Assembly: GCA_050949565.1 (NCBI GenBank)
Contig: JBMNFY010000007.1
Coordinates: 32,001-96,000 of the forward strand
Length of the DNA: 64,000 nucleotides
Direction of reading: 5' to 3'
Source of the DNA: Kiritimatiellia bacterium
Lineage (GTDB): Bacteria > Verrucomicrobiota > Kiritimatiellia > RFP12 > UBA1067
Part shown: one piece after another, positions 1-63,999 of the stretch
Numbering within the stretch: the stretch's first letter is position 1
Layout of the letters: each line of letters starts with the position of its first letter
Position numbers and translations under genes: made by a program
Notes under the pieces: model-generated
What the model was told of the DNA's origin: nothing
Databases searched by the model: none
What the model saw: only the letters and a program-made list of their open reading frames with translations

Positions 1-714
1 GGACAGGTGGGGGATGATCTCGTGGCCCTGAACGCCTATGACTGGCTCAATTCGTCGGTGACATTCGGTCCACAGAAGACGATCCTCTGCGAGGATCTGG
101 AGTTGGTCGGTCCCGGATATCCGGCGATCCGTATTCTGCCGGCCACCTACCGCTACAAGGACGGGACGGAAGTGGACTGTGCGATCAGCGACGTCATCTT
201 CCGTCGCGTGAAAGGGATCAAGTGTTTCAAGATGTATTTACAGACCCCCAACTATGCGGTCGGCACAGAGCCGGAGTGGTCCAAGATCGGTTCTGGTGGT
301 AATCTGCACTTCGAGGATATCGAGATCGATCTTGATCGTCCGATCGACCTGTTCGAGGCCTACACCGGCTCCGATCCGGTGCGTGGGCATTTCGGTGCGT
401 TCGAGTTCGGCGCGAATCTCACCAGCATCCACTTCAAGAACCTCAAGGTGAAGTTCCATGCCGACCGCTATCCACTTTCGCATCTCGCGGTTGTCGGACC
501 GAAATCGGTGCGCTTGACGGGTAGGAAAGGGGAGCCGCGAGAGGTGTTCGACCCGTATGTCAACTGCCGCGTGGGCAAGGTCGTCGTGGAGAACCTCGAA
601 GCAACGGGCGTTGTTCCAGCGAAGCTTGTGCATGCCACCGTTTTTGACGATGTGAACGGCGACGGGCGATCCTCCGGACGCGGCGAAATAGCGGATATTC
701 GGATCTCGAAGTAG
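1..714 (+). CDS. 5'-truncated pectin-lyase-fold (GH28-like beta-helix) protein, C-terminal part
   Basis: Frame open from window start; GDDLVALNAYD resembles the GH28-type GDD motif (also seen in 20341..22512); stop TAG 712-714. Confidence 0.5.
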   Translation, partial: GQVGDDLVALNAYDWLNSSVTFGPQKTILCEDLELVGPGYPAIRILPATYRYKDGTEVDCAISDVIFRRVKGIKCFKMYLQTPNYAVGTEPEWSKIGSGGNLHFEDIEIDLDRPIDLFEAYTGSDPVRGHFGAFEFGANLTSIHFKNLKVKFHADRYPLSHLAVVGPKSVRLTGRKGEPREVFDPYVNCRVGKVVVENLEATGVVPAKLVHATVFDDVNGDGRSSGRGEIADIRISK

Positions 715-921
715 TGGCCGAGTGGCCGCAAAGAACGCAAAGACCGCAAAGAAAGAAGAGTGGTAGATACTCCCAGCCAATTCTATGTGCTCTCTGCGTT
801 CTCTGCGGCTAATCAACTGGTAGAGGCGCCAATTCAATGTGTTCTCTGCGTTCTCTGCGGCTAATCAACTGGTAGGGAGAGTGGCCGCAAAGAACGTAAA
901 GAAAGGAAAAGGGGTATTGGC
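715..921. repeat. Upstream part of ~100-bp hairpin tandem array flanking the GxxExxY gene
   Basis: Full unit 720-826 (gtggccgcaaagaacgcaaag...tctctgcgttctctgcggctaatcaactggtag), half unit 827-877, lone left arm 878-910. Confidence 0.95.
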
Positions 922-1311
922 ATGAGAACTATGAAAGAATTGTGTGACATCGTGCGTGAAACGGCTTATGCAATTCACGTTTATCACGGTCAGGGACATC
1001 TGGAAAAGGTGTACGAGAATGCCTTGGTACATCGTTTGCGTAAAGCAGGCGTGGTGGTCATGCAGCAACATCCGCTCACTGTATATGACGAGGATGGCAC
1101 GGTTATTGGCGAATATCTTGCGGATCTATTTGTGGATGGGCGTCTAATTGTCGAGTTGAAGGCTTGTCGTGCATTGGCGTTGGAACACGTCGCGCAGGTA
1201 TTAGGTTATCTAAAGTCGGCGAGAGTTGAAGACGGGATGCTGATTAATTTTGGGAGCTATCGCTTTGAGGTCAAGAAATTTGCGCTGAGTGCGGCGGTAA
1301 AGAGGATATGA
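922..1311 (+). CDS. GxxExxY protein (PD-(D/E)xK nuclease-like)
   Basis: 129 aa; GHLEKVY motif; ADLFVD...IVELKA; LINFG near C-terminus; visibly AT-richer than neighbours. Confidence 0.93.
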   Translation: MRTMKELCDIVRETAYAIHVYHGQGHLEKVYENALVHRLRKAGVVVMQQHPLTVYDEDGTVIGEYLADLFVDGRLIVELKACRALALEHVAQVLGYLKSARVEDGMLINFGSYRFEVKKFALSAAVKRI

Positions 1312-1620
1312 GTGGCCGCAAAGAAAGAAGAGAGGCGGATGTCTCCCAGCCAATTCTATGTGTTCTCTGCGTTCTCTGCGGCTAATCAACTGGTAGAGGC
1401 GGAGAGTGCCGCAAAGACCGCAAAGAAAGAAGAGTGGCAGATACTCCCAGCCAATTCTATGTGTTCTTTGCGTTCTCTGCGGCTAATCAACTGGTAGAGG
1501 TGGAAAGTGGCCGCAAAGAACACAAAGACCGCAAAGAAAGAAGAGTGGCAGATACTCCCAGCTAATTCTATGTGCTCTCTGCGGCTAATCAACTGGTAGG
1601 GGTGGAGGGTGGCCGCAAAG
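1309..1620. repeat. Downstream part of the hairpin tandem array (3 full units plus a partial)
   Basis: Near-identical units 1309-1400, 1401-1500, 1501-1602, partial 1603-1620. Confidence 0.95.
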
Positions 1621-1648
1621 ATTGCGGAGAAAAAGGCGCACCGGCCGG

Positions 1649-1677
1649 TTGACGTGCCTCTTTTACTGGCCTACAAT
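1649..1677 (+). promoter_or_regulatory. Sigma70-type promoter
   Basis: TTGACG-N17-TACAAT; AGGAG RBS before ATG 1727. Confidence 0.7.
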
Positions 1678-1726
1678 GTGACCATTGTCGTGGTAGAAGG
1701 CGTGTGCTGTTAAACAGGAGACTGCA

Positions 1727-4406
1727 ATGAAAATGAAGATGATTCACGCGAAGGCTTCGATGGTGGTTACTGTGAAGGCGAGAGGAGTCCTGCTCGGCGT
1801 GGCGGCGGGCGTGCTCGGTGCGCTCGCCGTGCGGGGAGATATCGACGATCCGCTGGCCTATTGGAGTTTTGATGACGCGGAGAACCTGCTTGTCAACCAG
1901 GTGACGCCCAGTCCGCATCACAATGCGTCTGTGCTTTTAGGGACGCCGGTCGCTGGAGTCGCCGACGGCGCGTCTGGCATCGTCGGCAACGCGCTATTGC
2001 TGGATGGAACCGCTGCTATCCGGTTGCCGTATCACCAAGATAACCTGGGAACCTCGTTCACGCTTTCGCTGTGGTACTGGCAGCAGACGAACGACACGCG
2101 CCAGAGTGTCTATCAGACGCGCGACAACTACACGGCCACCTACGAGGCCGAGATCGGTGCTCATAGCCGCTTTGCGAGTTATGCTGGACAGGACTACGTC
2201 GGTGCCATCACCACCGAATTGCGGGAGTGGGTGCATTTGACCCATACGTTTGCCACGGTCGGACGGCACGACCACGCTCTCCGTGTACACCAACGGTGTC
2301 TTTGTGTTCAGCCACAGTGTCGGCAGCGGTGCCGTGTTCGGCGGGAGTGAGATCAGGGGGATTAGAGGGTTCCACATTGGTGCCGCACGCGGCGATTTGG
2401 TGTTTGGCGGTTGGGGCTGGCGCTGTTTCAAGGGGATGATCGACGATCTGGCGCTGTGGGGACGTGCGCTCTCCGCCGCCGAGGTCGAGGCGGTCTACCA
2501 GCGCGGTGTCAGCGGGGCGAAGCTTGCCTTCACGCCGGCGCCGGCGCCGGTGATCTCACTGGGCGGGAAGGATCTTTCCTTCACGCTGAACACAGACAGC
2601 GGACTGCCCGCTGGCATGTTTAACAACGGCTGGCTGATACACAACGTGCAGGACCCCGCTTATCCCTACGTGGCGGCTGACACAGCCAGGCCCGTGCTCG
2701 ACTACGTGCCCGACACGGCGGGACACGCGGAGGGGCCATTCAACGCCGAGGTCGCCGATGTGAAATGGAGGGTGCCACTGACCGATACGATGCGGCAACT
2801 TTCGCAAGGCGATTTCACGCTGGAGACGTGGTTCCGCACGACAGATGGCGGCCGGGGTACGGTGATGGGCAATTTCTATGGTCAAACCCTCGGTGTCGTC
2901 AATCTTGAGTTTTTTTACGACAACCAAGTCCGGCTCTATCTGGGCATTCCTAATTACGGAGACATAGATTTTAAGGCGACGGCCACCAACGTGAACACCC
3001 GTAACGGTCAGTGGCACCATTTGGCTGGCATCCGGCACGGCGACACGCTGTATCTGTAAGTGAACGGAGTAGAAGTGGGGACACGAACCATAGCACCGAG
3101 TTCCTACGCTCTTCTAGGCGATTACCTGTATCTGGGACGTGATAGCCGAACCGCTGTCGCCTTTAAAGGCGAAATGGGGGAAAGCCGCGTCTGGATGCGT
3201 GCGTTGAGTACCAACGAGTTGGCGGAGATCGTCGCCTTCGGCGTGCCGGGCAGCGATGCGCTTTCAAAGGATGATCTGCTCGCCGAGTACGATCTGCACG
3301 CGCCCTTTAATGCCAGCAAACCCTGGACAGGTTGGCCGGGCTATCGGATCCTGCTTGGGGCACCGAAGCTCGGAAGGGTTCCGATGACTAATTTCACCTG
3401 CGAAGCTGTTTTCCGCACGACGTCGACAGGTGCGGGGGCTCTAATGGGGAACTGGTCCAACCATGTGTACAACACGGTGAATCTGCAGCTTGAAGGTCCG
3501 AACGTTGTACGGTTTTATCTACGGAATACGGATGCCGCGACCTGGCTGAGTGTCACGCCTACGGATATCAATACGCGCGACGGCCAGTGGCACCGGCTGG
3601 CTGGCGTCCGGGGCAACAACACGATGGCACTGTACCTCGATGGACAACTGATGGGCAGTCAGGCCGAGACGCTGGGGGCGTATCCGTTGCAAGGGCCGTA
3701 CTACTATCTGGGGCGCGACGGTCGCGCCGATGCTGGCTTTTTGTTCAGGGGCGATATCGCTGCCGCGCGGATCTGGACGCGCGCGCTGAGTGCCGACGAG
3801 CTGGCCGGACTGGCGGCTTCCAACGCGGTGCCGGCCGACGGGCTGCTCGTCCAGTACACGCCCATGCTGACCAACTCGCTGACCACGGCGGGCTTCCCGG
3901 GCAGCCGCTTCCTGCGCTCGTTCGTGACCCTGACGAACAGTGCCGCGCTGGTTTTTACCGATCTGCCGCAACATGACAAAATCGGTCTGGGCATGATGCT
4001 GGCGCAGCTCGGTCAGATGAAGCCGACGGCGAAAGGCGACCGCTTCATGATCCGGGTCGACGGGACGGAGGTGCTCAGTGTCGGTCTCGGCCCCAACCAA
4101 GGCGCAGAGCCGCAGATCAGCACGTTGAGTTTGTTCGGCGAGGCGACGAATGTCGAGGTGTTCACGAGTACCCTGACGTGCGGCGATGACCTCTTCTTCT
4201 GCGGCACGGCCTGGAGTGACTATCGTGACCATGTGTACGATCTCGCGTTGCTGGAGCCGCTGCAGAACATTCCGCATTCGGCCGACACCTTGCTGGTTGA
4301 GATTATCGGCGTTCAGGATGCCATTCCCGAAGAAGCGAGTTTCGGGTTCGACCGGTTCGAGTTGACCGTTTACCCGCGCCGTGGCACGATACTTTTCTTG
4401 CAGTAA
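1727..4406 (+). pseudogene. Multi-LamG (concanavalin-like) exported protein interrupted by a +1 frameshift and an in-frame stop
   Basis: ORFs 1727..2350, 2250..3059 and 3060..4406 join into repeated LamG motifs (WHHLAG...LYLDG, W-RALS-E); extra G near 2261; TAA 3057-3059 in TLYL*VNG; ends PRRGTILFLQ. Confidence 0.8.
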
Positions 4407-4476: not shown

Positions 4477-4596
4477 GTGGCACGGGCATCTTGCCCGTGT
4501 TTGCCTCATGGGCGGGACGCCCATGCCACAAGGGGGGGGGCACGGGCATCTTGCCCGTGTTCGCCTCATGGGCGGGACGCCCATGCCACAAGGGGC
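4477..4596. repeat. Two tandem REP-like palindrome doublets
   Basis: cacgggcatcttgcccgtg + catgggcgggacgcccatg twice; same family at 11646-11730, 16865-16890, 27178-27228, 30589-30639, 38183-38235, 60779-60829, 63609-63633. Confidence 0.9.
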
Positions 4597-5776: not shown

Positions 5777-5791
5777 CCTCGTGTTCGCGGT

Positions 5792-5843
5792 GGGAGGGGC
5801 AAGCGTCTGCTTGCCCGCGGACGTGCAGACGCTCGTCCCTCCC
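5792..5843. repeat. REP-like doublet, second family
   Basis: gggaggggcaagcgtctgcttgccc...ggacgtgcagacgctcgtccctccc; copies near 11114-11139, 11474-11498, 17164-17190, 45944-45995, 63398-63449. Confidence 0.85.
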
Positions 5844-5874
5844 GATGGTAAGAAACGAAAGAACGGAACGAGAA

Positions 5875-7304: not shown

Positions 7305-7371
7305 GGGAGTTAGAATTTAGGAGTTAGAATTTAGGATTTGGGATTTGGGATTTTGGAATGAGGAATGAGGA
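7305..7371. repeat. Degenerate 7-nt periodic tract
   Basis: ggagttagaatttaggagttagaatttaggatttgggatttgggattttggaatgaggaatgagg; reverse-complement family at 17337-17370 and 18521-18551. Confidence 0.8.
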
Positions 7372-10765: not shown

Positions 10766-10865
10766 GATATCAAACCTCCTAAGTTAGAATGATAATGACA
10801 GAATGTGATGCCAGTATACCTGAGTGCGCAGCGGAAGTCTTTACCAAATTTTTATCTGATTTTCG

Positions 10866-10893
10866 CGTAATCGGTTAGTGACAGGGGCTTGCG
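10866..10893 (-). promoter_or_regulatory. 28-bp 11-6-11 recurrent site (first of 7 copies)
   Basis: Reads cgcaagcccct-gtcact-aaccgattacg on minus; other copies 11814-11841, 16753-16780, 40044-40071, 46143-46170, 55352-55379, 63716-63743. Confidence 0.7.
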
Positions 10894-10962
10894 AGTTTAG
10901 TGCGTGGTTTGTGTGTGCGCAGTCGGGAGCGCCCGCAGAAAGTTGAAAGTTAGAAGTTGAAT

Positions 10963-11153
10963 GTTTTTTAACTCAGAACGCTGAACGTCGAACTCTGAAC
11001 TCTGAAGGTGAAAACTCCTTGCCTATAACTTGGCATTAAAATAGGGGCACGGGTTTTCCAACCCGTGGCACGGACAGGAATGTCCGTGCTCCTTTCGCCG
11101 CGCACAGCGCGGCCGGTCAAGCAGACGCTTGACCCTCCCGGTGCTCCGCGAGC
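10963..11153 (+). repeat. 191-bp repeat, left copy of inverted pair with 17150-17340
   Basis: By-eye alignment to reverse complement of 17150-17340 shows 4 mismatches. Confidence 0.92.
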
Positions 11154-11987
11154 TCGGTAAAAGATTTTGTGCGGCGGCAAGCGGTATTCCGCGCGACGCC
11201 GCTTTTTGAACCCTTAGTCCCAGCACTTCGTCGGTTACACTTCGTCCCTACACTTCGCCGCTGGCGTAATCTACCAAGTGGTTTCGACTGTAGACGACTA
11301 AGTGTGTGTCTCCGCTCACGGCGCGGAGAGAAAGCGGTGCCGCGACCCGCGCACAGCGCGGCTCTTGTCACCGCAAATTTTCCGCTGCGCCATGCACGGT
11401 CTAAATACGCCAGATACCTGCCAACTCTCAACGCTCAACTTTCAACGCTCAAGTAGGCGGCGCATGCGCCGCCGGACGAGCAGACGCTCGTCCCTCCCGG
11501 TGCTCCGTAATGAAACCTGAAACCATCCTTCCGCACAGCGGAAGGCGGCTCGTGGGGACACTTGCCCTCCAAATCAAATCATGTAGTTCATGCGCCCGCG
11601 TAGCGGGAAATTAGGTCAATCAGGCCAAAAAAAATTAAACCACGGAACACGGGCAAGATGCCCGTGCCACACCCGTAGCATGGGCGTCCCGCCCATGAAG
11701 CGCACACGGGCAAGATGCTCGTGCCACACCCCTTTTGCAAGGCGTGCTGTCGCTGGCGAGAACGCCCGCGTTATTTTCTCACGACCTCCTTTTCACCAGA
11801 AACGTATGATCCTCGCGCACCCCTGTCACGAACCGATTGCCCAAATTTACTCGATTCCCCTTGCCGATCACGTTCCCGTTTCGTACCATTGCAACGATTT
11901 TTATGCGGGGAAGGTCGATTACCGAGATGACGCGGATGGCGTCTCGGCGGTCGCGGAAACACGTCCGGCCTATGCCGGAGAAGAGAA

Positions 11988-13949
11988 ATGAAAAAGGGGA
12001 AAGTTATGATCTGCAATCGCAATGTTTGGCTGGCGGTAATCGCGGCGGCTTTCGTTTGTCACGGCGGGCAGGAGAATCTGGTGCGCAACCCCGGCTTCGA
12101 GCAGACGGAGCCTTCCGGGGCCACTGTCGCTTGGCCCGAACGCAAACCGGTGTATCGCTTTGCGGATGGCGCAGGACGGGAGGGCTCGCGGGGACTGGTC
12201 TTTGAGAACAGCGATCCCAAGTTCTACTCGTTTCCGTCGCAGGCGCTCGACCTGCAGCGCGGGTGTTGCTACGCCTATGAAGTATGGGTCCGGACCGAAA
12301 ACCTTGTGGGCGAGGAGTCGGGGGCGGCGGTCTGCATGGAGTGGTATGACGGCAGTAAATATCTGGGCGGGGCGTATGCCGAAGGGGTGCGTGGAACCAG
12401 CGAGGGCTGGCAGCGCGTACACGGTTTCACGCGCGCTATCCCGACGAATGCCACGCGCGTCAGCATCTCCCCCTATGTGCGCCGCGGCATGACCGGCAAG
12501 GCGTGGTTCGATGATCTCAAGGTGACGCGCTACGTGCCGCCGCTGGTTCGCGCCGTGAGCGTTTCCACTTATCGCCATGTCGCGGCGGAGGGCCCCGTGT
12601 CATTTCATGCGGCGCTCACGTTGGACGAGTCCGGCGTGGTGCCTTCGGAAGTGAAGGGACTTTTCAGCATCGAAACGAGTGATGGTCAGACGGTGAAACG
12701 CTTGGAACCGGCGACGCTGACCGAACGCCATGCCGCATGCACGTTGGACGCGCGGACGCTACCGGTCGGCACCTACACAGTGCGCTTTACTTTGAATATG
12801 CGTGACGGGACATCTCGCGGTAGCGCGCAGACCCATTTCTTGCGCGTTGATCGTCTGCCGGAGCGGCGTGTGTTCATCGACCCGCACCGGCGGCTGATCG
12901 TGGACGGACAACCGTTCTTCCCGCTCGGCATGTATTGGGGCGGCGTCAAAGAGAAGGAGTTGGGAATTTACGCCAAAGGGCCTTTCAACTGCCTGATGCC
13001 GTACGGCAGTCCGACGACGAATCAGATGGATGCTTGCCATGCGCGCGGCCTCAAGGTGATCTACTCGATCAAAGATTACTACTCCGGCACACGCTGGGCA
13101 CCTGCCCACATGAAGACCGAAGCGGATGAGGTGGCCGAAATCCAGCGGCGCGTGGCGCTGCACGGGAAACATCCGGCCCTGTTGGCTTGGTACATCAACG
13201 ATGAACTGCCGCTCGCGATGGTGGATCGGCTGGCCGCGCGCCAGCGGTTGATGGAGAAGCTTGATCCTGATCATCCCACATGGGTGGTTCTGTATCAGCA
13301 TGACCAAGTGGACGCCTACCTGCCGACCTTCGATGTGATCGGAACCGATCCCTATCCGTTGCCCGCCAAGCCGGTCGGTACGGCGTTGCTGTGGACGCGC
13401 AACACGCGTGATCTTTCTTTCGGCACGCGGGCCATGTGGCAAGTGCCTCAGGTCTTCGATTGGGGCGCATACCGCAAAGGCGAAGCCCGCGAGAAAACAC
13501 GCGCGCCGACGCTGGCGGAGATGCGCGCTATGGCGTGGCAGTGCGTGGCTGCCGGTGCGAACGGATTGGTTTTCTACTCCTTCTTTGACCTGTTCAAGAT
13601 GCATGACCGCGATCCATTCGAGCGGCGTTGGGCTGATGTCTGCGCGATGGGCGAGGAACTCAAGCGTTACATTCCGGTCATGCTCTCGATCGAGCCGCTG
13701 CCGCAATTGACTTGCAAGGCACCGGCGTCCGTGGAAACGCGCGCGTGGCGTGTGGGGTCACATCTCTACCTGCTGGCAGTGAACGGTGACACGGCGGCGG
13801 CTGATGCCGAGGTTTCGATCGCGGGCGGCTTCTCAGAGCTTCACGCTGAATTCGGTCAGGTGCCCAAGGTTTTGGACGGCGGTCGACTGGCCTTCCGCCT
13901 TGACCCGCTGGATCCGGTGATGGTGCGGGTGAAGCTAGGTAAGAGGTAA
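11988..13949 (+). CDS. Exported CBM4/9-like domain plus putative glycoside hydrolase TIM barrel
   Basis: Signal peptide; ENLVRNPGFE and AWFDDLKV CBM motifs; VDGQPFFPLGMY, LLAWYINDE, GTDPYP. Confidence 0.75.
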   Translation: MKKGKVMICNRNVWLAVIAAAFVCHGGQENLVRNPGFEQTEPSGATVAWPERKPVYRFADGAGREGSRGLVFENSDPKFYSFPSQALDLQRGCCYAYEVWVRTENLVGEESGAAVCMEWYDGSKYLGGAYAEGVRGTSEGWQRVHGFTRAIPTNATRVSISPYVRRGMTGKAWFDDLKVTRYVPPLVRAVSVSTYRHVAAEGPVSFHAALTLDESGVVPSEVKGLFSIETSDGQTVKRLEPATLTERHAACTLDARTLPVGTYTVRFTLNMRDGTSRGSAQTHFLRVDRLPERRVFIDPHRRLIVDGQPFFPLGMYWGGVKEKELGIYAKGPFNCLMPYGSPTTNQMDACHARGLKVIYSIKDYYSGTRWAPAHMKTEADEVAEIQRRVALHGKHPALLAWYINDELPLAMVDRLAARQRLMEKLDPDHPTWVVLYQHDQVDAYLPTFDVIGTDPYPLPAKPVGTALLWTRNTRDLSFGTRAMWQVPQVFDWGAYRKGEAREKTRAPTLAEMRAMAWQCVAAGANGLVFYSFFDLFKMHDRDPFERRWADVCAMGEELKRYIPVMLSIEPLPQLTCKAPASVETRAWRVGSHLYLLAVNGDTAAADAEVSIAGGFSELHAEFGQVPKVLDGGRLAFRLDPLDPVMVRVKLGKR

Positions 13950-13964
13950 TAGGGTCTAATTCCC

Positions 13965-16526
13965 TTACTGCTCCTGCGGCACGACGACGAAAACGGGTGT
14001 TCGGCCAACCTCGACGGACGCCGCGCCGACGAGTTCATTTCCCATCGCATCCCATAGGCGCCCCCCCTGCGGCAGAGCCGCGCGATCGAGCCGTGCGCGT
14101 CCCGGCACGAGTACGTCGTCCCATAGAACGCTCACCGAACGGTCGTCCCCACGGAACCGCGCCACGCGCATGCCCTCGGGCGGCGGGGCCAAGGGGGCGG
14201 GTTCAAGGCCATCAATGAAATAGGCGGTCACGGCGGTGGCGGCGGCCACCGGCGAGACGGCACGGTCGTAGTCGGCCAGATTCATCAGCCCGTGCCCGTC
14301 AAAACGGTCCGTGTTGTGCAGCGAATAGAGGAAAAGCTTGGCGATGCCGTTCGCGAACGTGTCCGCCCAGCAGCGCGCGCCAAAGGCAACCGCCTCCTCG
14401 AGATCCTCGGGCGGCGTGCGGCGGAAGGTGTAGAAGCTGGCCGTCATGCTCAGGTTGCCTTCCGTATTCCAGATTTCCGGCGCGGCGCGAGCGCCGAACG
14501 TCGCGCGCATGTTGGCGATGAGGGCGCCGCCGTCGGTGTCGCCGTCGCCGGGGACGTTGCAGAAGTAATAGTGCATCGAGTTGATGTCCGGCCGCTCCGC
14601 GACCGGGGCGCTCTCCAGAAACGGTTTCACGTAGTCGGGACTCGACAGCTCGGTACACCAGCCGACGACCTTCGCGGACGGATTGCCCTTTCGGAGCGCC
14701 GCCGCGCCGGCGTTGAAGACGGGGCCGAACTCCGCCGCCGTGCCGCGGAAGAAATAGCCGGAGATGTAGGGTTCGTTCCACACCTCCCAGTGGTCGATGC
14801 GGCCGGCGTAATGCGCCGCCACCTGCTCGCACCAGGCCGCGAAGGCCGCGGCGTCGTAATGGTGCTTCCCCTGCGCGTCCACGGGATGCGCCCACTCTGG
14901 CGGCCCGTCCGGCAGCCCGAGAATCGCGATGCCCGCCGCCCGGACGGCGTCGACCGGTTCATCGAACCATCTCCACTCGCCCGGCTTCGGGTTGCCGCAG
15001 GACATTTTCGTGATGCCCGAACAGTCATGCAGCCGCTCCCAGCCCATGCCGATCGCCCGCGCATAGCGGATGAAATACGGCGAAAGGCGGAAATGCGTGC
15101 CGAAGCGGCTGCGCTCCCCCAGTCCACGTGGAGGCGGCAAACGGGCCAGCACACGCTCGCACCGCACGGCGGACGAGGCGTCCTGCGGCACAAGCTCCAC
15201 GCGTAGAAGGCCGTTCGCATTCGGCTCAACGTCGAGGTGATGCGTCTTGCCGCCGGCCACAAGCTCCACGCGCCGCTCATGCACCAGGCGGTTCGGATAC
15301 GCCGTCACCCGCAGGGTGGCATGCACCACGGTCCCCGTCGGGCTGTCGGCCGCATGCGCCGCCAGGCGCAGCGGAAGAGGCCGTCCCCACGGCACGATGG
15401 CCGGCTGGTCCGTCGGCGCGTCGAATGCCAGTTCAAGCTCGTGGGGCGCGGCGGGGGCGTACGGCGTCGCGCGCGACCCCAGTTCAAACTGGAGTCCGTC
15501 CACGCGCACGGCATGGCCGTTGTCGCAGGATATCGTAAGCGCCGCCTGCCGGACATCCTCGGGGACGGGCGGCGTCGTCACCTCCAACCGCACCCATCCG
15601 TCCTGTGCCGCCACGGGAAACGTTTTGCCGAAGCGCCATTTGTTCGAATTGAGCCGTCCGTCCCAGCCGCCCAGTCGGACATGTGCCGTACCTTCTTCGC
15701 ATTTTGCCCAAAGCGAAAATGTATACGCTTGCCCGCTCGCCACATCCATCGGACGCGTGACGGTCTCGCCCGCCGTATAGGGACGTTTCGGGAACCACAG
15801 CGCCCGTCGGCCGAACTTGCCGCCCGCGATCCATTCCGGACGCGCGTCCTGCCATTCGCTCCACGCTTCGCCGGTGAAGACGGTGTTGATGAAGAAGTTG
15901 TCGTCCTTCGCCTCGCAGGAGCTTGATGGCACGAGGTTTCCGGCGACGGGTGGATTGTTGTTCTTCTCCACGGTCGCGTCGGGGTTGGCGTCAAATTCCT
16001 CAACCATCACGTCGTCCAGCAGAAAGTGTCCTATGCTGCCTGTGGAGACCATCACGCCAAATCCGCTCTGCACATCGGCCTTGGCGCAGAATGCGAACGC
16101 ATGCCGCTGCCAGCCGTTCGTGGGGCGGAACGTGTTCCCCGCGCCATACATCGTCCAGGGGTAGCCGATTTTCCGCACGCACACGTTGATCTTGCCGGGA
16201 TGATCTATGCCTTTCAGGAGAAAGCTCACGCGGTACCAGCGCTGCTGCCACATCGGCCAGGCGGGCGAGAAGATCTGCAGTTCGCCGCCGAAGTTGCTGG
16301 TCATGTCCACGTTCATCGCCCGCCCTCGACCGTCTGCACCTGTTTGGCTGCCGAACGCGCACGTCCGTCTGCCCCAGTTGCCCACGATCCAGCCCTCCGG
16401 GGCGCTCCGACCGTCCAACGGCATGTCGTCGAACGTCCAATGCGCCACAAGCCGACCCGCATTCGCCCCGGCTAGCGACACTATGCAGCCCCACACGGCC
16501 ACGGAAAGAGCAAGCGACGTCTTCAT
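13965..16526 (-). CDS. Exported multi-CBM plus clan GH-A (GH39/GH5-like) glycoside hydrolase
   Basis: Start reassigned to MKTSLAL; LLDDVMVEE and VDGLQFELG CBM motifs; HWEVWNEP acid/base and IWNTEG nucleophile motifs. Confidence 0.78.
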   Translation of the reverse strand: MKTSLALSVAVWGCIVSLAGANAGRLVAHWTFDDMPLDGRSAPEGWIVGNWGRRTCAFGSQTGADGRGRAMNVDMTSNFGGELQIFSPAWPMWQQRWYRVSFLLKGIDHPGKINVCVRKIGYPWTMYGAGNTFRPTNGWQRHAFAFCAKADVQSGFGVMVSTGSIGHFLLDDVMVEEFDANPDATVEKNNNPPVAGNLVPSSSCEAKDDNFFINTVFTGEAWSEWQDARPEWIAGGKFGRRALWFPKRPYTAGETVTRPMDVASGQAYTFSLWAKCEEGTAHVRLGGWDGRLNSNKWRFGKTFPVAAQDGWVRLEVTTPPVPEDVRQAALTISCDNGHAVRVDGLQFELGSRATPYAPAAPHELELAFDAPTDQPAIVPWGRPLPLRLAAHAADSPTGTVVHATLRVTAYPNRLVHERRVELVAGGKTHHLDVEPNANGLLRVELVPQDASSAVRCERVLARLPPPRGLGERSRFGTHFRLSPYFIRYARAIGMGWERLHDCSGITKMSCGNPKPGEWRWFDEPVDAVRAAGIAILGLPDGPPEWAHPVDAQGKHHYDAAAFAAWCEQVAAHYAGRIDHWEVWNEPYISGYFFRGTAAEFGPVFNAGAAALRKGNPSAKVVGWCTELSSPDYVKPFLESAPVAERPDINSMHYYFCNVPGDGDTDGGALIANMRATFGARAAPEIWNTEGNLSMTASFYTFRRTPPEDLEEAVAFGARCWADTFANGIAKLFLYSLHNTDRFDGHGLMNLADYDRAVSPVAAATAVTAYFIDGLEPAPLAPPPEGMRVARFRGDDRSVSVLWDDVLVPGRARLDRAALPQGGRLWDAMGNELVGAASVEVGRTPVFVVVPQEQ

Positions 16527-17149
16527 CTGACGACGATTACCAGTCTGCCGTCGCCGCGCATAACGCGGCAATGAATGCGGCTTGTCCGATGCGAGGCCGT
16601 GACTGACCTGCACTTACCTTCCTGCGCTTCGTGTCGTGAATCGTCATTTTTTGAGTTCCTTTTCTTATCGCGCTTGTGTCGAGTCGCAAAACGCTGACAA
16701 AAAGGCATTGTCACACATTCCGAGGCGTTTGTCTAATGGACTTCCCCCCCAAAAAAATCGGTTCGTGACAGGGATGTGTGAAGATCGTGCGTTTATGGTG
16801 AAAGGGGGAGTAGAAAGTCGGGCGCGGGTGTCCTCGCCCACAACAACGTGTCTTGTAAAAGGGTGTGGCACGGGCATCTTGCCGTGTTCCATGGTTTCAT
16901 TTTTTGACAGGATTTCCCGCTGCGCGGACGCGTAAACGACACGATCGACATGATTGACATGATTTGGAGGGCGAGTGTCCCCACGAGCCGCAGCCGCGCT
17001 GTGCGCGGATTTTTCACTTCTGCGTTCTGCGTTCGACGTTCTGCGTTCTGCGTTCAAAAGAGACGGCGTTAAACGCCGCCCACTTGAGCGTTGAAAGTTG
17101 AGCGGACGGCGGCTCGTGGGGACACTCGCCCTCCAGTGCTGCGGTCTGG

Positions 17150-17340
17150 GCTCGCGAAGCACCGGGAGGGTCAAGCGTCTGCTTGACCGGCCGCGCTGTG
17201 CGCGGCGAAAGGAGCACGGACATTCCTGTCCGTGCCACGGGTTGGAAAACCCGTGCCCCTATTTTAATGCCAAGTTATAGGCAAGGAGTTTTCGACTTCA
17301 GAGTTTAGAGTTCGACGTTCAGCGTTCTGAGTTAAAAAAC
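17150..17340 (-). repeat. 191-bp repeat, right inverted copy
   Basis: Reverse complement of 10963-11153. Confidence 0.92.
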
Positions 17341-17356
17341 TCCTAACTCCTAAATC

Positions 17357-18457
17357 CTAAATCCTAACTCCGCGCGGCAGCGCGGCCGCGCGGTAGGCGG
17401 CTTCGCGTTCGAGGCAACCCGCGACGGCGGCGTGGATCGCGTCGAGGGTGTTTAGTTCATGCAGGCGTCCGCGCACGTAGGACGAGCCTTTGAGTCCGTG
17501 CAGGTAGCGGAAGAGGTGGCAACGGAAGGTTGTGGCCAGCGTTTCCTCCAACTGTGCGGCATCGACAGGCAGGCCAGAGCGCGCTTGGATGCGTTCGAAC
17601 AACGCGATTTCGGCCGCGATATGCGCTTCGAACGTGTCGCGGATCACGGTGAGGTCGCGGCGCGGACGCGCGCCGGCAAAGGCGGGCGCCGGAGGTTCTG
17701 CGCCGGAAGCAAACGCCGCCAGCGTGTCTTCAAAGATCCAGGGATTGCCGAGTGCGGCGCGGGCGATCATGATGGCGTCCACGCCGGTTTCGTGAAACAT
17801 GCGCCACGCATCGTACGGGGAGGCCACGCCGCCATTGCCGATGACTGGGAGTGTCGCGCGTCGTTTCACTTCGGCCAGCAGGTCGAGATGCACGGGACCG
17901 CCGTGGCCCTGCGAGGTGAAGCGTCCATGTAGCGTGAGGGCGTCGGCACCAGCTTGTTCGGCGGCGTCGAGAGTTTCAAAGATGGCTACACGGTCAGGGG
18001 ACGGCCCAAGACGCGTCTTGAGGGTCAGCGGCAAACGGATGGCGCGTCGCATCGCGGAGAGAATGGCATGGATGCGGCGGGGGTCATGGATCAGGGCGGC
18101 GCCGGCACCGTTCGCGGTGATTTTGTGAACCGGACAGCCAGCGTTGAGGTCGATGCCGACAAAGCGTCCGCTCTGCTCGACACGGACGGCGGCCTCTGCC
18201 AACGACGCAGGGTCGGAACCATAGAGATGGGCGATGACCGGTCCTTCGTCGTCAAAGGTTTCCAGCAGATGCCAGGTCTTGTCAGAGGTGTGTAGCAGGC
18301 CAAGATCACTCGTCATTTCGGTATACGTCAGCGCGGCACCGTGCTGATGACAGAGGCGGCGCATCGGAGCGTTGGTATAACCGGCCATCGGTGCCAAGAA
18401 GAGTAGGGGGGACTGGCGGGATGGAAGGTCGAAACATGCATGCAGAGTCTTGCCCAT
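17357..18457 (-). CDS. dusB: tRNA-dihydrouridine synthase (DusB-like)
   Basis: LAPMAG, YTEM, DLNAGCP, LKTRLG, LHGR, IGNGGV, MIARAALGNPW. Confidence 0.9.
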   Translation of the reverse strand: MGKTLHACFDLPSRQSPLLFLAPMAGYTNAPMRRLCHQHGAALTYTEMTSDLGLLHTSDKTWHLLETFDDEGPVIAHLYGSDPASLAEAAVRVEQSGRFVGIDLNAGCPVHKITANGAGAALIHDPRRIHAILSAMRRAIRLPLTLKTRLGPSPDRVAIFETLDAAEQAGADALTLHGRFTSQGHGGPVHLDLLAEVKRRATLPVIGNGGVASPYDAWRMFHETGVDAIMIARAALGNPWIFEDTLAAFASGAEPPAPAFAGARPRRDLTVIRDTFEAHIAAEIALFERIQARSGLPVDAAQLEETLATTFRCHLFRYLHGLKGSSYVRGRLHELNTLDAIHAAVAGCLEREAAYRAAALPRGVRI

Positions 18458-45850: not shown

Positions 45851-46243
45851 CGCCGCGCCCGCGCGGCGGAAAAAGTTGAGGTTTTTTAACGCAGAGACGC
45901 GGAGACGCAGAGGTTTTTACGGGGTGGTGGCGTGACCGCCGTCGGGAGGGGCAAGCGTCTGCTTGCCCGCGGACGAGCAGACGCTCGTCCCTCCCCTCCT
46001 GCGGTCAAAGACAAAAAAGAAAAAATCTGCGCAATCTGTGCAAATCTGCGGATAAAACCAGAAAACCGCAAGACACGTTGTCGCAGGCGAGAACGCCCGC
46101 GTTACCTTCTCACGACCTCCTTTTCACCAGAAACATGACCTTCGCATACCCCTCTCACTAACCGATAACGACTTTTTGATTGATTGCTGTCGATAAGTCG
46201 TTACACTTTGGGCTTGAACAGGTGAAAAAGAGGTTACAATGTC

Positions 46244-47227
46244 ATGCCCGGAAAACCTTTCCAGTCAAAACTGAACCCGCACGAGGATGAGATTTTTGTT
46301 CTGCTGGATGCGGGTTGGAGCTTTCGCCGGGTCGCCGAACAGCTTAACCGCACCCACGGCCTCGGGGTGACGCACAACGCGGTGTTCTCTTTTGTGAAGT
46401 GCCGTCGCAAACGGCGCGGTCCCCGTTTCTTTTTCGAGGGGCTCTCTCCCGATATCCGCGACCACATGCTGAAGCAGATTGCCGCTGTCTGGACGCACGA
46501 CTCTACCGCTATCGAGGGGAACACGTTAACGCTGGGCGACACGGCTAAGATTCTGGAGTTGGGGTTGACCATCAGCGGGAAAAGTCTGCGCGAGCATCAG
46601 GAGGTTTACGGACACGCCCGTGCGATTGATCTGATTTACCGGATGTTACGTCAGCCGGGTATCACCGAAAAGGATCTGTTCGCCTTGCACTGCGCCGTGA
46701 TGCAACTCTCGGCGATAGACGCCCTGAATCCGGTGGGGGCGTGGAAGCAGTCATACAACGGCACTACCGGCGTGGTGAACGGTCAGGTCGTTTTCATGGA
46801 GTACGCCGATCCCTTGGATGTGCCGTACCTGATGAAGCGATGGCTTGAAACATTCAATGCGTCGCTGGATGAAGCGCAACAACCGGAAGAGGCCGTCGGT
46901 GCTTATGTCCGGACACATCTGGGCTTCGTGCGGATCCATCCGTTTTTCGATGGTAACGGACGCGTGGCGCGGCTGGTCGCGAATCTGCCTGTGCTACGTG
47001 CCGGTTATCCGCCCGTCACCGTTCCGCTGGAGCGTCGCGGCGATTACATCGACATCCTGTGGGAGCACGAGAACGCGGTCGGCAAGATCCAGCGTGACGA
47101 TCCGCTTGTGCCGCCGTATCCAGCCATCGAGCGATTTACGGCGTTATTGCAGGCCGAATGGCAGCGGACACTGAAGCCCCTAGAAGAGGCTCGCCGCCGG
47201 GAAGCCGAGAGAAAAAGTAATAGGTAG
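46244..47227 (+). CDS. Class II Fic (AMPylase) protein with N-terminal HTH-like region
   Basis: HPFFDGNGRVAR catalytic motif; STAIEGN inhibitory motif. Confidence 0.92.
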   Translation: MPGKPFQSKLNPHEDEIFVLLDAGWSFRRVAEQLNRTHGLGVTHNAVFSFVKCRRKRRGPRFFFEGLSPDIRDHMLKQIAAVWTHDSTAIEGNTLTLGDTAKILELGLTISGKSLREHQEVYGHARAIDLIYRMLRQPGITEKDLFALHCAVMQLSAIDALNPVGAWKQSYNGTTGVVNGQVVFMEYADPLDVPYLMKRWLETFNASLDEAQQPEEAVGAYVRTHLGFVRIHPFFDGNGRVARLVANLPVLRAGYPPVTVPLERRGDYIDILWEHENAVGKIQRDDPLVPPYPAIERFTALLQAEWQRTLKPLEEARRREAERKSNR

Positions 47228-47314
47228 TAGGTAATGGGTAATAGGTAAGAAGTAATAGGTAAGAAGTAATAGGTAATAGGTAGTAGGTAATAGGTAATGG
47301 GTAATGGGTAATAG
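47218..47314. repeat. 7-nt periodic tandem tract overlapping the Fic stop
   Basis: About 13-14 units of taatagg/tagtagg/taatggg/taagaag. Confidence 0.92.
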
Positions 47315-47402
47315 TGTCCCCAAAAAAACCTCTGCGTCTCTGCGCCTCTGCGTTAAACAAACAACTTTTTTATCGTGCTTGTCGGACCGTAAGGCGCTAA
47401 TC

Positions 47403-63339: not shown

Positions 63340-63800
63340 GAGTTGTTTTTTAACGCAGAGACGCAGAGGTTTTGATGGATGCGGCGTGACCGCCGCTGGG
63401 AGGGGCAAGCGTCTGCTTGCCCGCGGACGAGCAGACGCTCGTCCCTCCCGGTGCTCCGCAATGAACCCTGAAACCATCCTTCCGCACAGCGGAAGGCGGC
63501 TCGTGGGGACACTCGCCATCCATTGCCCGTCCCTGCGGCTCGTGGGGACACTCGCCATCCAAATCATGTCAATCATGTCAATCATGTCAAAAAAATGAAA
63601 CCATGGAACACGGGCAAGATGCCCGTGCCACACCCTTTTGCAAGACACGTTGTTGCGGGCGAGGACGCCCGACTCCAAATCTCTGCTCCCCTTTTCACCA
63701 GAAACGCACGATCTTCGCACATCCCTGTCATTAACCGACTGTGGATGGTCATGGAAAAACCTTTGTGTCCTTTGTGCCTTTGTGTGAGATTGAATTGGGT
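63340..63800. repeat. Intergenic repeat mosaic
   Basis: cgcagaga arm, three REP families, (aatcatgtc)x3, 28-bp site, cctttgtg arm; blocks shared with 11474-11841, 16753-16990 and 45881-46170. Confidence 0.88.
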
Positions 63801-63855
63801 TGCGGGCTTTACCCGCGCTAGGTGAAAGGATCTAATAACGTTCAACGCTTAACGC

Positions 63856-63999
63856 TCAACTTTTAACGCTCAAGTTTTGAAGGGCGAGGTTCCTGTAGCA
63901 CGGAGCCAGCACGTCGTGGATGGCGCGGTAGCGTTGGAACTGACTGTTGTAAAACTCCGCGCGTCCGGCGTCGGGCAACAACTCGCGATCAAAACGCAG
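63856..63999 (-). CDS. C-terminal end of a probable FGGY carbohydrate kinase (continues beyond window)
   Basis: Translates LRFDRELLPDAGRAEFYNSQFQRYRAIHDVLAP...*, like FGGY kinase C-termini; upstream of the isomerase/aldolase cluster. Confidence 0.55.
   Translation of the reverse strand: MRFDRELLPDAGRAEFYNSQFQRYRAIHDVLAPCYRNLALQNLSVKS

Follow-up and report, generated by a model that had tools for sequence, protein, structure and literature searches.

We analyzed a 64,000-nucleotide stretch of DNA from a Kiritimatiellia bacterium (hereafter the window; GenBank assembly GCA_050949565.1, contig JBMNFY010000007.1, positions 32,001 to 96,000) and focused on a block of periodic hairpin repeats near its start, which encloses a gene for a protein of the GxxExxY family. 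Comparisons within the genome, across the phylum and among close orthologues show that this gene and its repeat arms behave as a single heritable unit that is also transferred between phyla. Our best reading is that they form a cassette related in design both to the open reading frame (ORF)-bearing intervening sequences (IVS) of 23S rRNA and to the repetitive extragenic palindromic (REP) sequences with their REP-associated tyrosine transposases (RAYTs). More specifically, and with a confidence that stands about midway between doubt and acceptance, we regard positions 717-1637 as one copy of a compact selfish cassette in which a nuclease gene lies between arms of sub-repeats of about 9 nt, the nuclease acting on its own arms and host repair or replication doing the rest. 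Around this copy its own gene-less hairpin unit has been amplified locally in tandem, and the block lies at a synteny break. The features of the block are as follows, in window coordinates.

713..728, + strand: two copies of the 8-nt unit AGTGGCCG, a row of Tandem Repeats Finder (TRF), overlapping the stop codon of the upstream gene; the repeat block begins here
717..826, + strand: hairpin unit 1, with a left arm of three 9-nt sub-repeats (725-753), a loop, a right arm of two (781-809) and a tail to 826
828..875, + strand: half unit without a left arm (loop end, right arm and tail), to which the remaining full copies show 96-98% identity
876..909, + strand: lone left arm directly 5' of the gene, its purine-rich 3' end running into the ribosome-binding region
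922..1311, + strand: intact GxxExxY gene of 129 amino acids (aa), with G25-E28-Y31, D68 ... E78-x-K80 and Q92; PF13366, TIGR04256
1309..1399, + strand: hairpin unit A, beginning within the stop codon of the gene, with one sub-repeat in the left arm and two in the right
1400..1500, + strand: hairpin unit B, with two sub-repeats per arm and an inverted pair 1408-1427 / 1464-1483 that is 90% complementary
1501..1602, + strand: hairpin unit C, weak (fold z -0.48), with three sub-repeats in the left arm and one in the right
1604..1637, + strand: terminal lone left arm, which closes the repeat block; homology with the related genome G004 restarts at 1638

A reading of the window made from the sequence alone had described near-identical units of about 100 bp on both sides of the 129-aa gene, and two types of search recover them (717-909 and 1309-1637). 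TRF reports a 9-nt period repeated three times at 727-753 and again at 1354-1380, a 52-nt period repeated 1.9 times at 776-875 and a 101-nt period repeated 2.5 times at 1316-1583. The repeat search yields four copies of a 91-nt unit (736-826, 1309-1399, 1410-1500 and 1521-1611), eight register-overlapping copies of the left arm that correspond to six arms (717-759, 876-909, 1307-1340, 1400-1433, 1502-1544 and 1604-1637), and five copies of a piece made of loop, right arm and tail (776-823, 828-875, 1349-1396, 1450-1497 and 1552-1599). The arms are indeed built of 9-nt sub-repeats whose number varies between units, as had been stated: the left/right counts are 3/2 in unit 1, 1/2 in unit A, 2/2 in unit B and 3/1 in unit C. 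The suggestion that the gene occupies the loop position of a unit does not hold literally here, the order being left arm, gene, left arm, loop, right arm; the plain order left arm, gene, right arm is found in an orthologue of another genus. The left arm stops just short of the ribosome-binding site, and the next arm begins at the stop codon.

The gene product is a member of the PD-(D/E)xK nuclease fold, in agreement with the earlier assignment. It matches PF13366 (PDDEXK_3) with an E-value of 7e-30 and 104.2 bits (cut-off 22) and TIGR04256 (GxxExxY) with an E-value of 5e-31 and 107.5 bits (cut-off 35), and its profile matches are limited to these two. Among 45 aligned sequences, residues G25, E28, Y31, L35, D68, K80, Q92, G105, N109 and F110 are invariant, and 90% or more of the sequences have E78; the conserved columns are those of the GxxExxY motif and of the D ... 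ExK core. The predicted structure has a pLDDT (predicted local distance difference test) value of 94.3 and a pTM (predicted template modeling) score of 0.87. When this model was compared with solved folds by Foldseek, the nearest was Cas4 SSO0001 (E 1.8e-4, TM 0.58), followed by the AdnAB nuclease domain, a restriction-endonuclease-like protein of Spirosoma (3ijm), lambda exonuclease and RecE, with the archaeal resolvase Hjc as a weaker neighbour; a search of solved structures with the protein sequence returned nothing at E-values up to 1. The ratio of nonsynonymous to synonymous substitution rates is 0.066 and 0.026 in comparison with orthologues of two other genera. Such low values indicate that the gene is under purifying selection and probably encodes an active PD-(D/E)xK nuclease. 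It is also AT-richer than its flanks, as had been observed, with a GC content of 0.474 (0.50 at third codon positions) compared to 0.577 and 0.603 in the neighbouring genes (0.72-0.73 at third codon positions) and 0.604 in the genome; all five intact GxxExxY copies of the genome have 45-48% GC, a foreign composition. In a 2012 survey of the superfamily, the function of GxxExxY proteins is listed as unknown (PMC3424549). We found such proteins in 75 of 151 sampled genomes of the phylum.

The 4.66-Mb genome (G000) is dense in short-period repeats, with 902, 690 and 1075 TRF rows of period 7, 8 and 9, so that any link between the gene and the arms had to be measured against a control. The genome contains six GxxExxY loci, one of which is frameshifted. 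In all six, and likewise in orthologues, a periodic arm lies just 5' of the start codon; in the six loci the 3' side carries either its reverse complement or a left-loop-right hairpin, and tandem arrays of 47-110-bp units adjoin four of them. Flanks that match each other, inverted or direct, with a score of at least 16 were found at 6/6 GxxExxY loci versus 153/3470 ORF-genes (4.4%), and at 71/969 among the ORFs of 200 aa or less; both background counts take in the six loci themselves, copies of insertion sequences and spurious ORFs within arrays. For the phylum we took 30 other genomes with one locus each, picked by hidden Markov model score alone. Inverted arms reached a score of at least 14 in 23 of these 30 loci and at least 16 in 19, versus 0/57 when the same geometry was shifted by 900 nt and 32/870 when upstream and downstream flanks were paired across loci. 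The third comparison concerned close orthologues (64-85% aa identity), obtained in a scan with the window protein as the single query and one genome per species; the counts rest on the best 80 of at least 241 relatives among 600 candidate stretches. Inverted arms scored at least 14 in 53/80 and at least 16 in 44/80 of these, and none of 146 shifted controls did. The predicted enrichment of arms near GxxExxY genes was thus found at each of these levels, and the opposite outcome, an absence of enrichment, at none. The orientation of neighbouring genes was uninformative: the upstream neighbour is co-directional at 71 of 99 scorable loci and the downstream one at 69 of 92, about as for a typical bacterial gene.

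The type of arm follows the lineage of the protein, as the sequence-only reading had expected. The five intact paralogues in the genome are 29-31% identical to the window protein, and the arm family differs for each of them. Proteins of about 30% identity within one genome therefore have different arms, whereas proteins of 70-80% identity in different phyla have the same arms; orthologues that are bracketed carry the CGCAAAGAA-type array of the window, often with a common outer non-periodic end. According to the record titles of the best 80 orthologues, these derive from Kiritimatiellae (the closest), Verrucomicrobiota, Planctomycetes, Anaerolineae, Nitrospirota, a cyanobacterium, Acidobacteria, Hydrogenedentota, Victivallales and the isolate Trichlorobacter thiogenes, and span at least 8 phyla. 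The occurrence of such close orthologues in different phyla points to horizontal transfer of the whole cassette, and this reading of the sequence comparisons fits the remark 'multiple transfers, mixed clades' made on PF13366 in the 2012 survey (PMC3424549). The period of the sub-repeats is likewise characteristic, the best period being 8-10 nt in 19/23 GxxExxY arms of the phylum sample and in 47/52 of the orthologues, and the cassettes span about 450-730 bp. Within the genome, the arm family of the window occurs at 9 loci, 8 of them elsewhere, and the arm families of the other genes at 67, 117, 56 and 7 loci, with one or two genes per family. Gene-less arms are thus much more numerous than gene-bearing arms.

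The repeat block coincides with a break in synteny. For the upstream gene, identity is 96-97% to two genomes of the same genus and 85-86% to two other genera. Its product ends in ...RISAAVPSR in G004 and ...RISAAAKSREK in G023, compared to ...RISK in the window (by eye); in both genomes it is followed by unrelated genes, the next one in G004 resembling gyrA (by eye), and homology with both stops at the repeat start at 713-728. G002 has the same end of the upstream gene as the window; behind it come a lone left arm, different repeats and a different gene. On the 3' side of the block, a LamG-type gene is collinear with G004 contig C4 from 1638 on, and in G004 the junction likewise carries a lone arm of the window type. 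From the differing gene ends on one side and the collinearity on the other, homology ends exactly at the two outer arms. Orthologous cassettes of three other genera occur in three other contexts; one of them has the plain left-gene-right layout and two have left-gene-left-loop-right with further units.

A second locus documents the exchange of genes between arms (L015, G000 C17:553001-567500, compared with L127 and L128). At C17:565 kb of G000, a conserved upstream gene is followed by left-arm units, a GxxExxY gene, a right arm and a transporter gene. The right arm recurs in G004 and G006, where it encloses a gene of 263-264 aa of the HpcH aldolase type (named by eye), and in G004 the left arm is kept as well. 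At its two ends the G004 aldolase gene is bordered by remnants of the GxxExxY gene, namely its first codons and its last eight; G006 retains a degraded 3' remnant. A tblastn search for this aldolase in G000 gave no copy at E 1e-5. Ordinary genes at C17:558-565 kb are also separated by the same arms.

Short-read contigs provided independent assemblies; they come from two RNA libraries and from two DNA metagenomes that belong to separate studies. The gene with its adjoining arms (848-1376 and 876-1360) and pieces of the units are present in independent contigs at 99-100% identity, and in the DNA runs the contigs over 1337-1458 add up to a depth about 2 to 4 times as high as on the flanks. Within populations the arms are unstable: 8 nt are absent at 713 in 3/4 runs, and a 9-nt sub-repeat is absent at 1362 in one contig from an RNA library. 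One contig per DNA run departs from the window sequence at 697 and continues with other sequence, which fits co-existing strains with an alternative junction. None of the contigs listed for the four runs crosses the whole array, so the number of units rests on the assembly. A contig from an RNA library that joins 817 to 1499, with 6 other letters between and a depth of 3.4, was considered as a gene-less allele and discarded, as it reads like a unit-to-unit junction of a variant array. The gene depth in the RNA-library contigs is like that of the flanks, and we make no claim of expression since carry-over of DNA is possible.

With regard to folding, three of the four full units form hairpins clearly beyond shuffled sequences, as had been proposed for all of them. 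As DNA, the + strand gives z values of -2.99 for unit 1, -2.72 for unit A and -4.27 for unit B. The - strand folds more strongly (-4.89 for unit 1 and -5.92 for unit B), because A.C mismatches of the + strand turn into G.T. The sense strand folded as RNA gave z values of -4.02 and -3.40. If a stem were selected in the transcript, its arms should be rich in changes compatible with G.U pairing. Across 53 bracketed orthologous cassettes, the 127 mismatched positions of the sense strand comprise 41 G.T, 59 A.C and 27 others; counted per locus, G.T is more frequent in 14, A.C in 20, and the two are equal in 19. There is thus no G.U-compatible excess, and the pattern shows no more constraint than symmetric similarity between the two arms. 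An initial hairpin census had found 19 periodic hairpins; it was too insensitive because the arms are not colinear copies, and its counts were not used, except for the arm coordinates of unit 1. Its small sense-strand tally, 3 G.T versus 13 A.C, has the same direction. In a search of window positions 600-1800, no Rfam family was found at threshold and no rRNA match at all; matches to microRNA-like hairpins reached 20-25 bits compared to gathering scores of 54-105. The alternative in the sequence-only reading, that the array encodes a structured RNA on which the protein acts, finds no support in the mismatch pattern or in Rfam, although an RNA stem is still compatible with the folding of the sense strand. 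Between the array and the gene we found no terminator-like site on the + strand; a promoter-like site at 1649-1677 lies after the array and 5' of the LamG-type gene.

Periodic arms also accompany a second kind of small gene. The genome has nine strong TIGR02436 genes, which encode four-helix-bundle proteins of the 23S-IVS-protein type, and periodic arms stand on both sides of all nine (by eye).

G000 C20:20564-20884, C17:395446-395766, C17:399225-399545, C8:62233-62547 and five more: four-helix-bundle genes with inverted arms of 7-nt units

Inverted arms score at least 14 at 5/9 of these loci and 12-13 at 3/9, and one locus matches directly with a score of 38. Elsewhere in the phylum, brackets were found at 14/26 evaluable loci versus 0/55 controls (3 of the 29 loci lie at contig ends and were not evaluable). 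The best period is 7 nt in 21/26 loci, including 12 of the 14 that are bracketed. A known element of related design is the IVS in helix 45 of the 23S rRNA of Coxiella burnetii, which contains an S23p ORF, has a 28-bp terminal stem, is excised by RNase III, carries two or three tandem heptamers before the start codon in a strain-variable number, and is termed a selfish element of unknown origin (PMC4990558). The cassettes resemble ORF-bearing 23S rRNA IVS in having a small ORF within terminal inverted repeats and short, variable tandem sub-repeats just 5' of it; in the window, the left arm of such a pair is found 5' of the gene, and the right arm only after a further left arm and loop. Unlike the IVS, the window cassette lies between two protein-coding genes and not in helix 25 or 45 of 23S rRNA, its cargo is a PD-(D/E)xK nuclease, and its period is about 9 nt rather than 7 nt. 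Further differences are that gene-less cassette copies are dispersed by tens to hundreds, that units are amplified in tandem, and that the arm mismatches give no sign of selection at the RNA level. The hairpin-armed architecture is known for one cargo at one location, and the window adds another cargo, another period and another location. In the searchable literature, whose coverage does not extend to subscription journals, no description of GxxExxY genes with such arms was found.

The cassettes also share properties with other systems. As in REP/REPIN-RAYT systems (Bertels and Rainey 2011, PMC3116915), the gene is flanked by cognate repeats, there are several families each tied to a gene copy, and many gene-less, hairpin-forming copies occupy extragenic space, also in clusters and tandem arrays. 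The window protein is a PD-(D/E)xK protein and not a tyrosine (Y1) HUH transposase, it gives no RAYT profile match, and the arms are sub-repeat arrays instead of one palindrome. RAYTs are mostly vertically inherited, unlike the cassette lineage, which occurs at 64-85% identity in many phyla. Miniature inverted-repeat transposable elements (MITEs) and other small elements with terminal inverted repeats, such as the Correia elements of Neisseria, are likewise small and intergenic and have gene-less derivatives; the cassettes differ from them in that no target-site duplication was seen by eye beside the 34 inspected and that their gene encodes no known class of transposase. In type III toxin-antitoxin systems, ToxIN among them, a small nuclease gene is also accompanied by a tandem array of short units, there directly upstream and set off by a terminator, whereas in the cassettes the position of the array varies, the units are hairpins of inverted arms, most copies have no array, and arms are dispersed over the genome.

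In the cassette reading that we favour, the nuclease would have its own arms as substrate, in the form of iterated binding sites or extruded into a hairpin or cruciform. The resulting cut would be repaired by host recombination or replication, which would copy the cassette and leave gene-less derivatives, while slippage or unequal exchange would amplify units in tandem and the arms would become joints at which flanking genes reshuffle. By analogy with the ORF-bearing 23S rRNA IVS, the arms probably also pair in the transcript, and such pairing might make the presence of the cassette between genes largely harmless. A nuclease that acts on its arms, together with host repair, would account for arms specific to a lineage, a period that follows the protein family, gene-less derivatives, tandem amplification, unstable numbers of sub-repeats and synteny breaks.

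Several observations weigh against this proposal. A 129-aa nuclease can cut strands but cannot join them, and no joining enzyme was found. By eye, no consistent target-site duplication is present beside the 34 best-scoring cassettes. Empty-site alleles, which the sequence-only reading had suggested looking for, could not be recovered as a clean filled/empty pair at this locus among the relatives examined, because the downstream context differs in every one of them. In the 4.66-Mb assembly the full 100-bp unit is confined to this locus, and other places have only pieces of the arm region of 15-23 nt. The numbers of sub-repeats in the left and right arms do not co-vary within units, and unit C (1501-1602) barely folds (z -0.48 as + strand DNA), which together indicate that exact pairing is not strictly kept. 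Several abundant arm families have no resident GxxExxY gene in the assembly, which is 92% complete. The co-occurrence of arm type and protein lineage can come from physical linkage alone. Finally, the same architecture surrounds the four-helix-bundle genes, which do not encode nucleases, so such arms do not have to serve as substrates of a nuclease. The earlier proposal of spreading in the manner of REP/RAYT therefore stands with regard to the excess of gene-less over gene-bearing arms; its other half, mobilisation of the arms by the protein, stays a hypothesis, in view of the missing target-site duplication and joining activity, the single location of the 100-bp unit and the similar arms around four-helix-bundle genes.

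Among the other explanations, one deserves real though minor weight and we consider it unlikely: that the cassette is an IVS-like RNA element, whose arms serve mainly as a transcript stem cut by RNase III to release or insulate the RNA of the small ORF, while the nuclease has its target elsewhere, for example in defence or repair. The Coxiella element, with its 28-bp stem, variable heptamers, S23p ORF and RNase III excision (PMC4990558), speaks for this, and the four-helix-bundle genes are bracketed in the same way in this genome and in the phylum. That the left arm ends before the ribosome-binding site and the next one starts from the stop codon, and that units fold well as sense RNA, also favours such an element. 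Against this, the 53 cassettes have no G.U-compatible excess on the sense strand (41 G.T versus 59 A.C), the antisense strand of the window folds better, and a stem for RNase III leaves unexplained both the period that follows the protein family and the hundreds of gene-less arms. We think it improbable, to a greater degree, that the periodic hairpins are merely a general feature and recombination hot spots, a passive landing pad where small foreign genes accumulate without a functional tie. The abundance of TRF rows of period 7, 8 and 9 in the genome is compatible with this, as are the ordinary genes sometimes bracketed by the same arms, such as nrdR and the genes at C17:558-565 kb, and the HpcH-type aldolase that in G004 and G006 lies between the arms of C17:565 kb along with GxxExxY remnants. 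A landing pad would, however, hardly combine one arm type with one protein lineage across at least 8 phyla that probably differ in their other intergenic repeats, bracket 6/6 GxxExxY loci compared to 4.4% of ORF-genes, or have a sub-repeat period that follows the protein family.

The two remaining explanations fare worse. In a system like type III toxin-antitoxin modules, a transcribed repeat RNA would be processed by the nuclease and would inhibit it. The protein is a small nuclease by profile and fold, and arrays of 47-110-nt units adjoin 4/6 genes, but these arrays lie upstream, downstream or on both sides, and many cassettes have just one left and one right arm. Moreover, arms of the same family occur at 7 to 117 loci that are nearly all gene-less, the units are inverted-pair hairpins and not plain direct repeats, and the + strand has no terminator-like site between array and gene; we regard this explanation as very remote. 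We attach next to no weight to the last one, that the arrangement is a coincidence in repeat-rich DNA or a misassembled array. Short-read assemblies do break in the array and no listed contig spans it. The controls in the genome, in the phylum and among orthologues contradict chance, however, the same layout is found in orthologues of other genera, and the gene and adjoining arms recur at 99-100% identity in metagenomes of different studies, with a unit depth of about 2 to 4 times that of the flanks.

The parallel between the two kinds of cargo allows a broader and more speculative extension of the cassette reading, which we put forward tentatively and hold to be doubtful as a whole. GxxExxY cassettes, four-helix-bundle (S23p) cassettes and classical 23S rRNA IVS might be branches of one hairpin-armed mobile class, in which the encoded protein would read the period of the arms, about 9 nt in nuclease cassettes and 7 nt in four-helix-bundle cassettes, and drive a hairpin- or cruciform-directed cut-and-copy process, the arms being joints that swap host genes such as the aldolase at C17:565 kb. 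If this were true, it would amount to integron-like gene shuffling without an integrase. The cassettes are of interest for other reasons as well. The defined DNA architecture provides a specific substrate on which GxxExxY proteins can be tested, may explain part of the dense intergenic repeats with 7-9-nt periods, and ties the puzzle of the origin of rRNA intervening sequences to a far broader cassette family. Should the arms be recombination joints, they would also bear on the reshuffling of gene order in these bacteria.

Other repeats and insertions were noted in the window and in the genome. The dominant short-period units in G000 are ACGCAGAG with 145 TRF rows, AAATCCT with 125 and AACACACGG with 71. 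Within the window, dense short-period repeats occur, for example, at 7306-7371, 10938-11006, 17018-17401, 45889-46050, 47217-47353 and 63353-63878. Longer tandem arrays, with units of 300, 429 and about 620 bp, are present in G000 at C17:778485-781191, C5:12489-13382, C18:19329-20522 and C15:26979-28743; they string together arms of several families and yield spurious ORFs of 97-172 aa. At 10852-11840 of the window lies a mosaic of about 990 nt, composed of several repeat modules and with inverted ends of the GTAATCGGTTAGTGACAGGGG type. It is flanked by a direct duplication of 7-8 bp (CAAATTT) and is absent from the collinear G004 contig, which together mark it as a clean MITE-like insertion of another, non-periodic family. 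A segment of 3.4 kb at 13937-17379 is also absent from collinear G004; its right end (about 16900-17440) contains many modules of the mosaic at 10900-11200 in reversed orientation, and the two insertions may be related. At 5777-5874, 98 nt with a GC-rich hairpin correspond to 805 nt in G004 (L133, G004:C4), where the insert encodes a small antitoxin-like and a PIN-like protein (by eye). Finally, a 60-bp unit with two GC-rich palindromes occurs twice in tandem (98% matches) at 4479-4595, 3' of the cluster of LamG-type genes.

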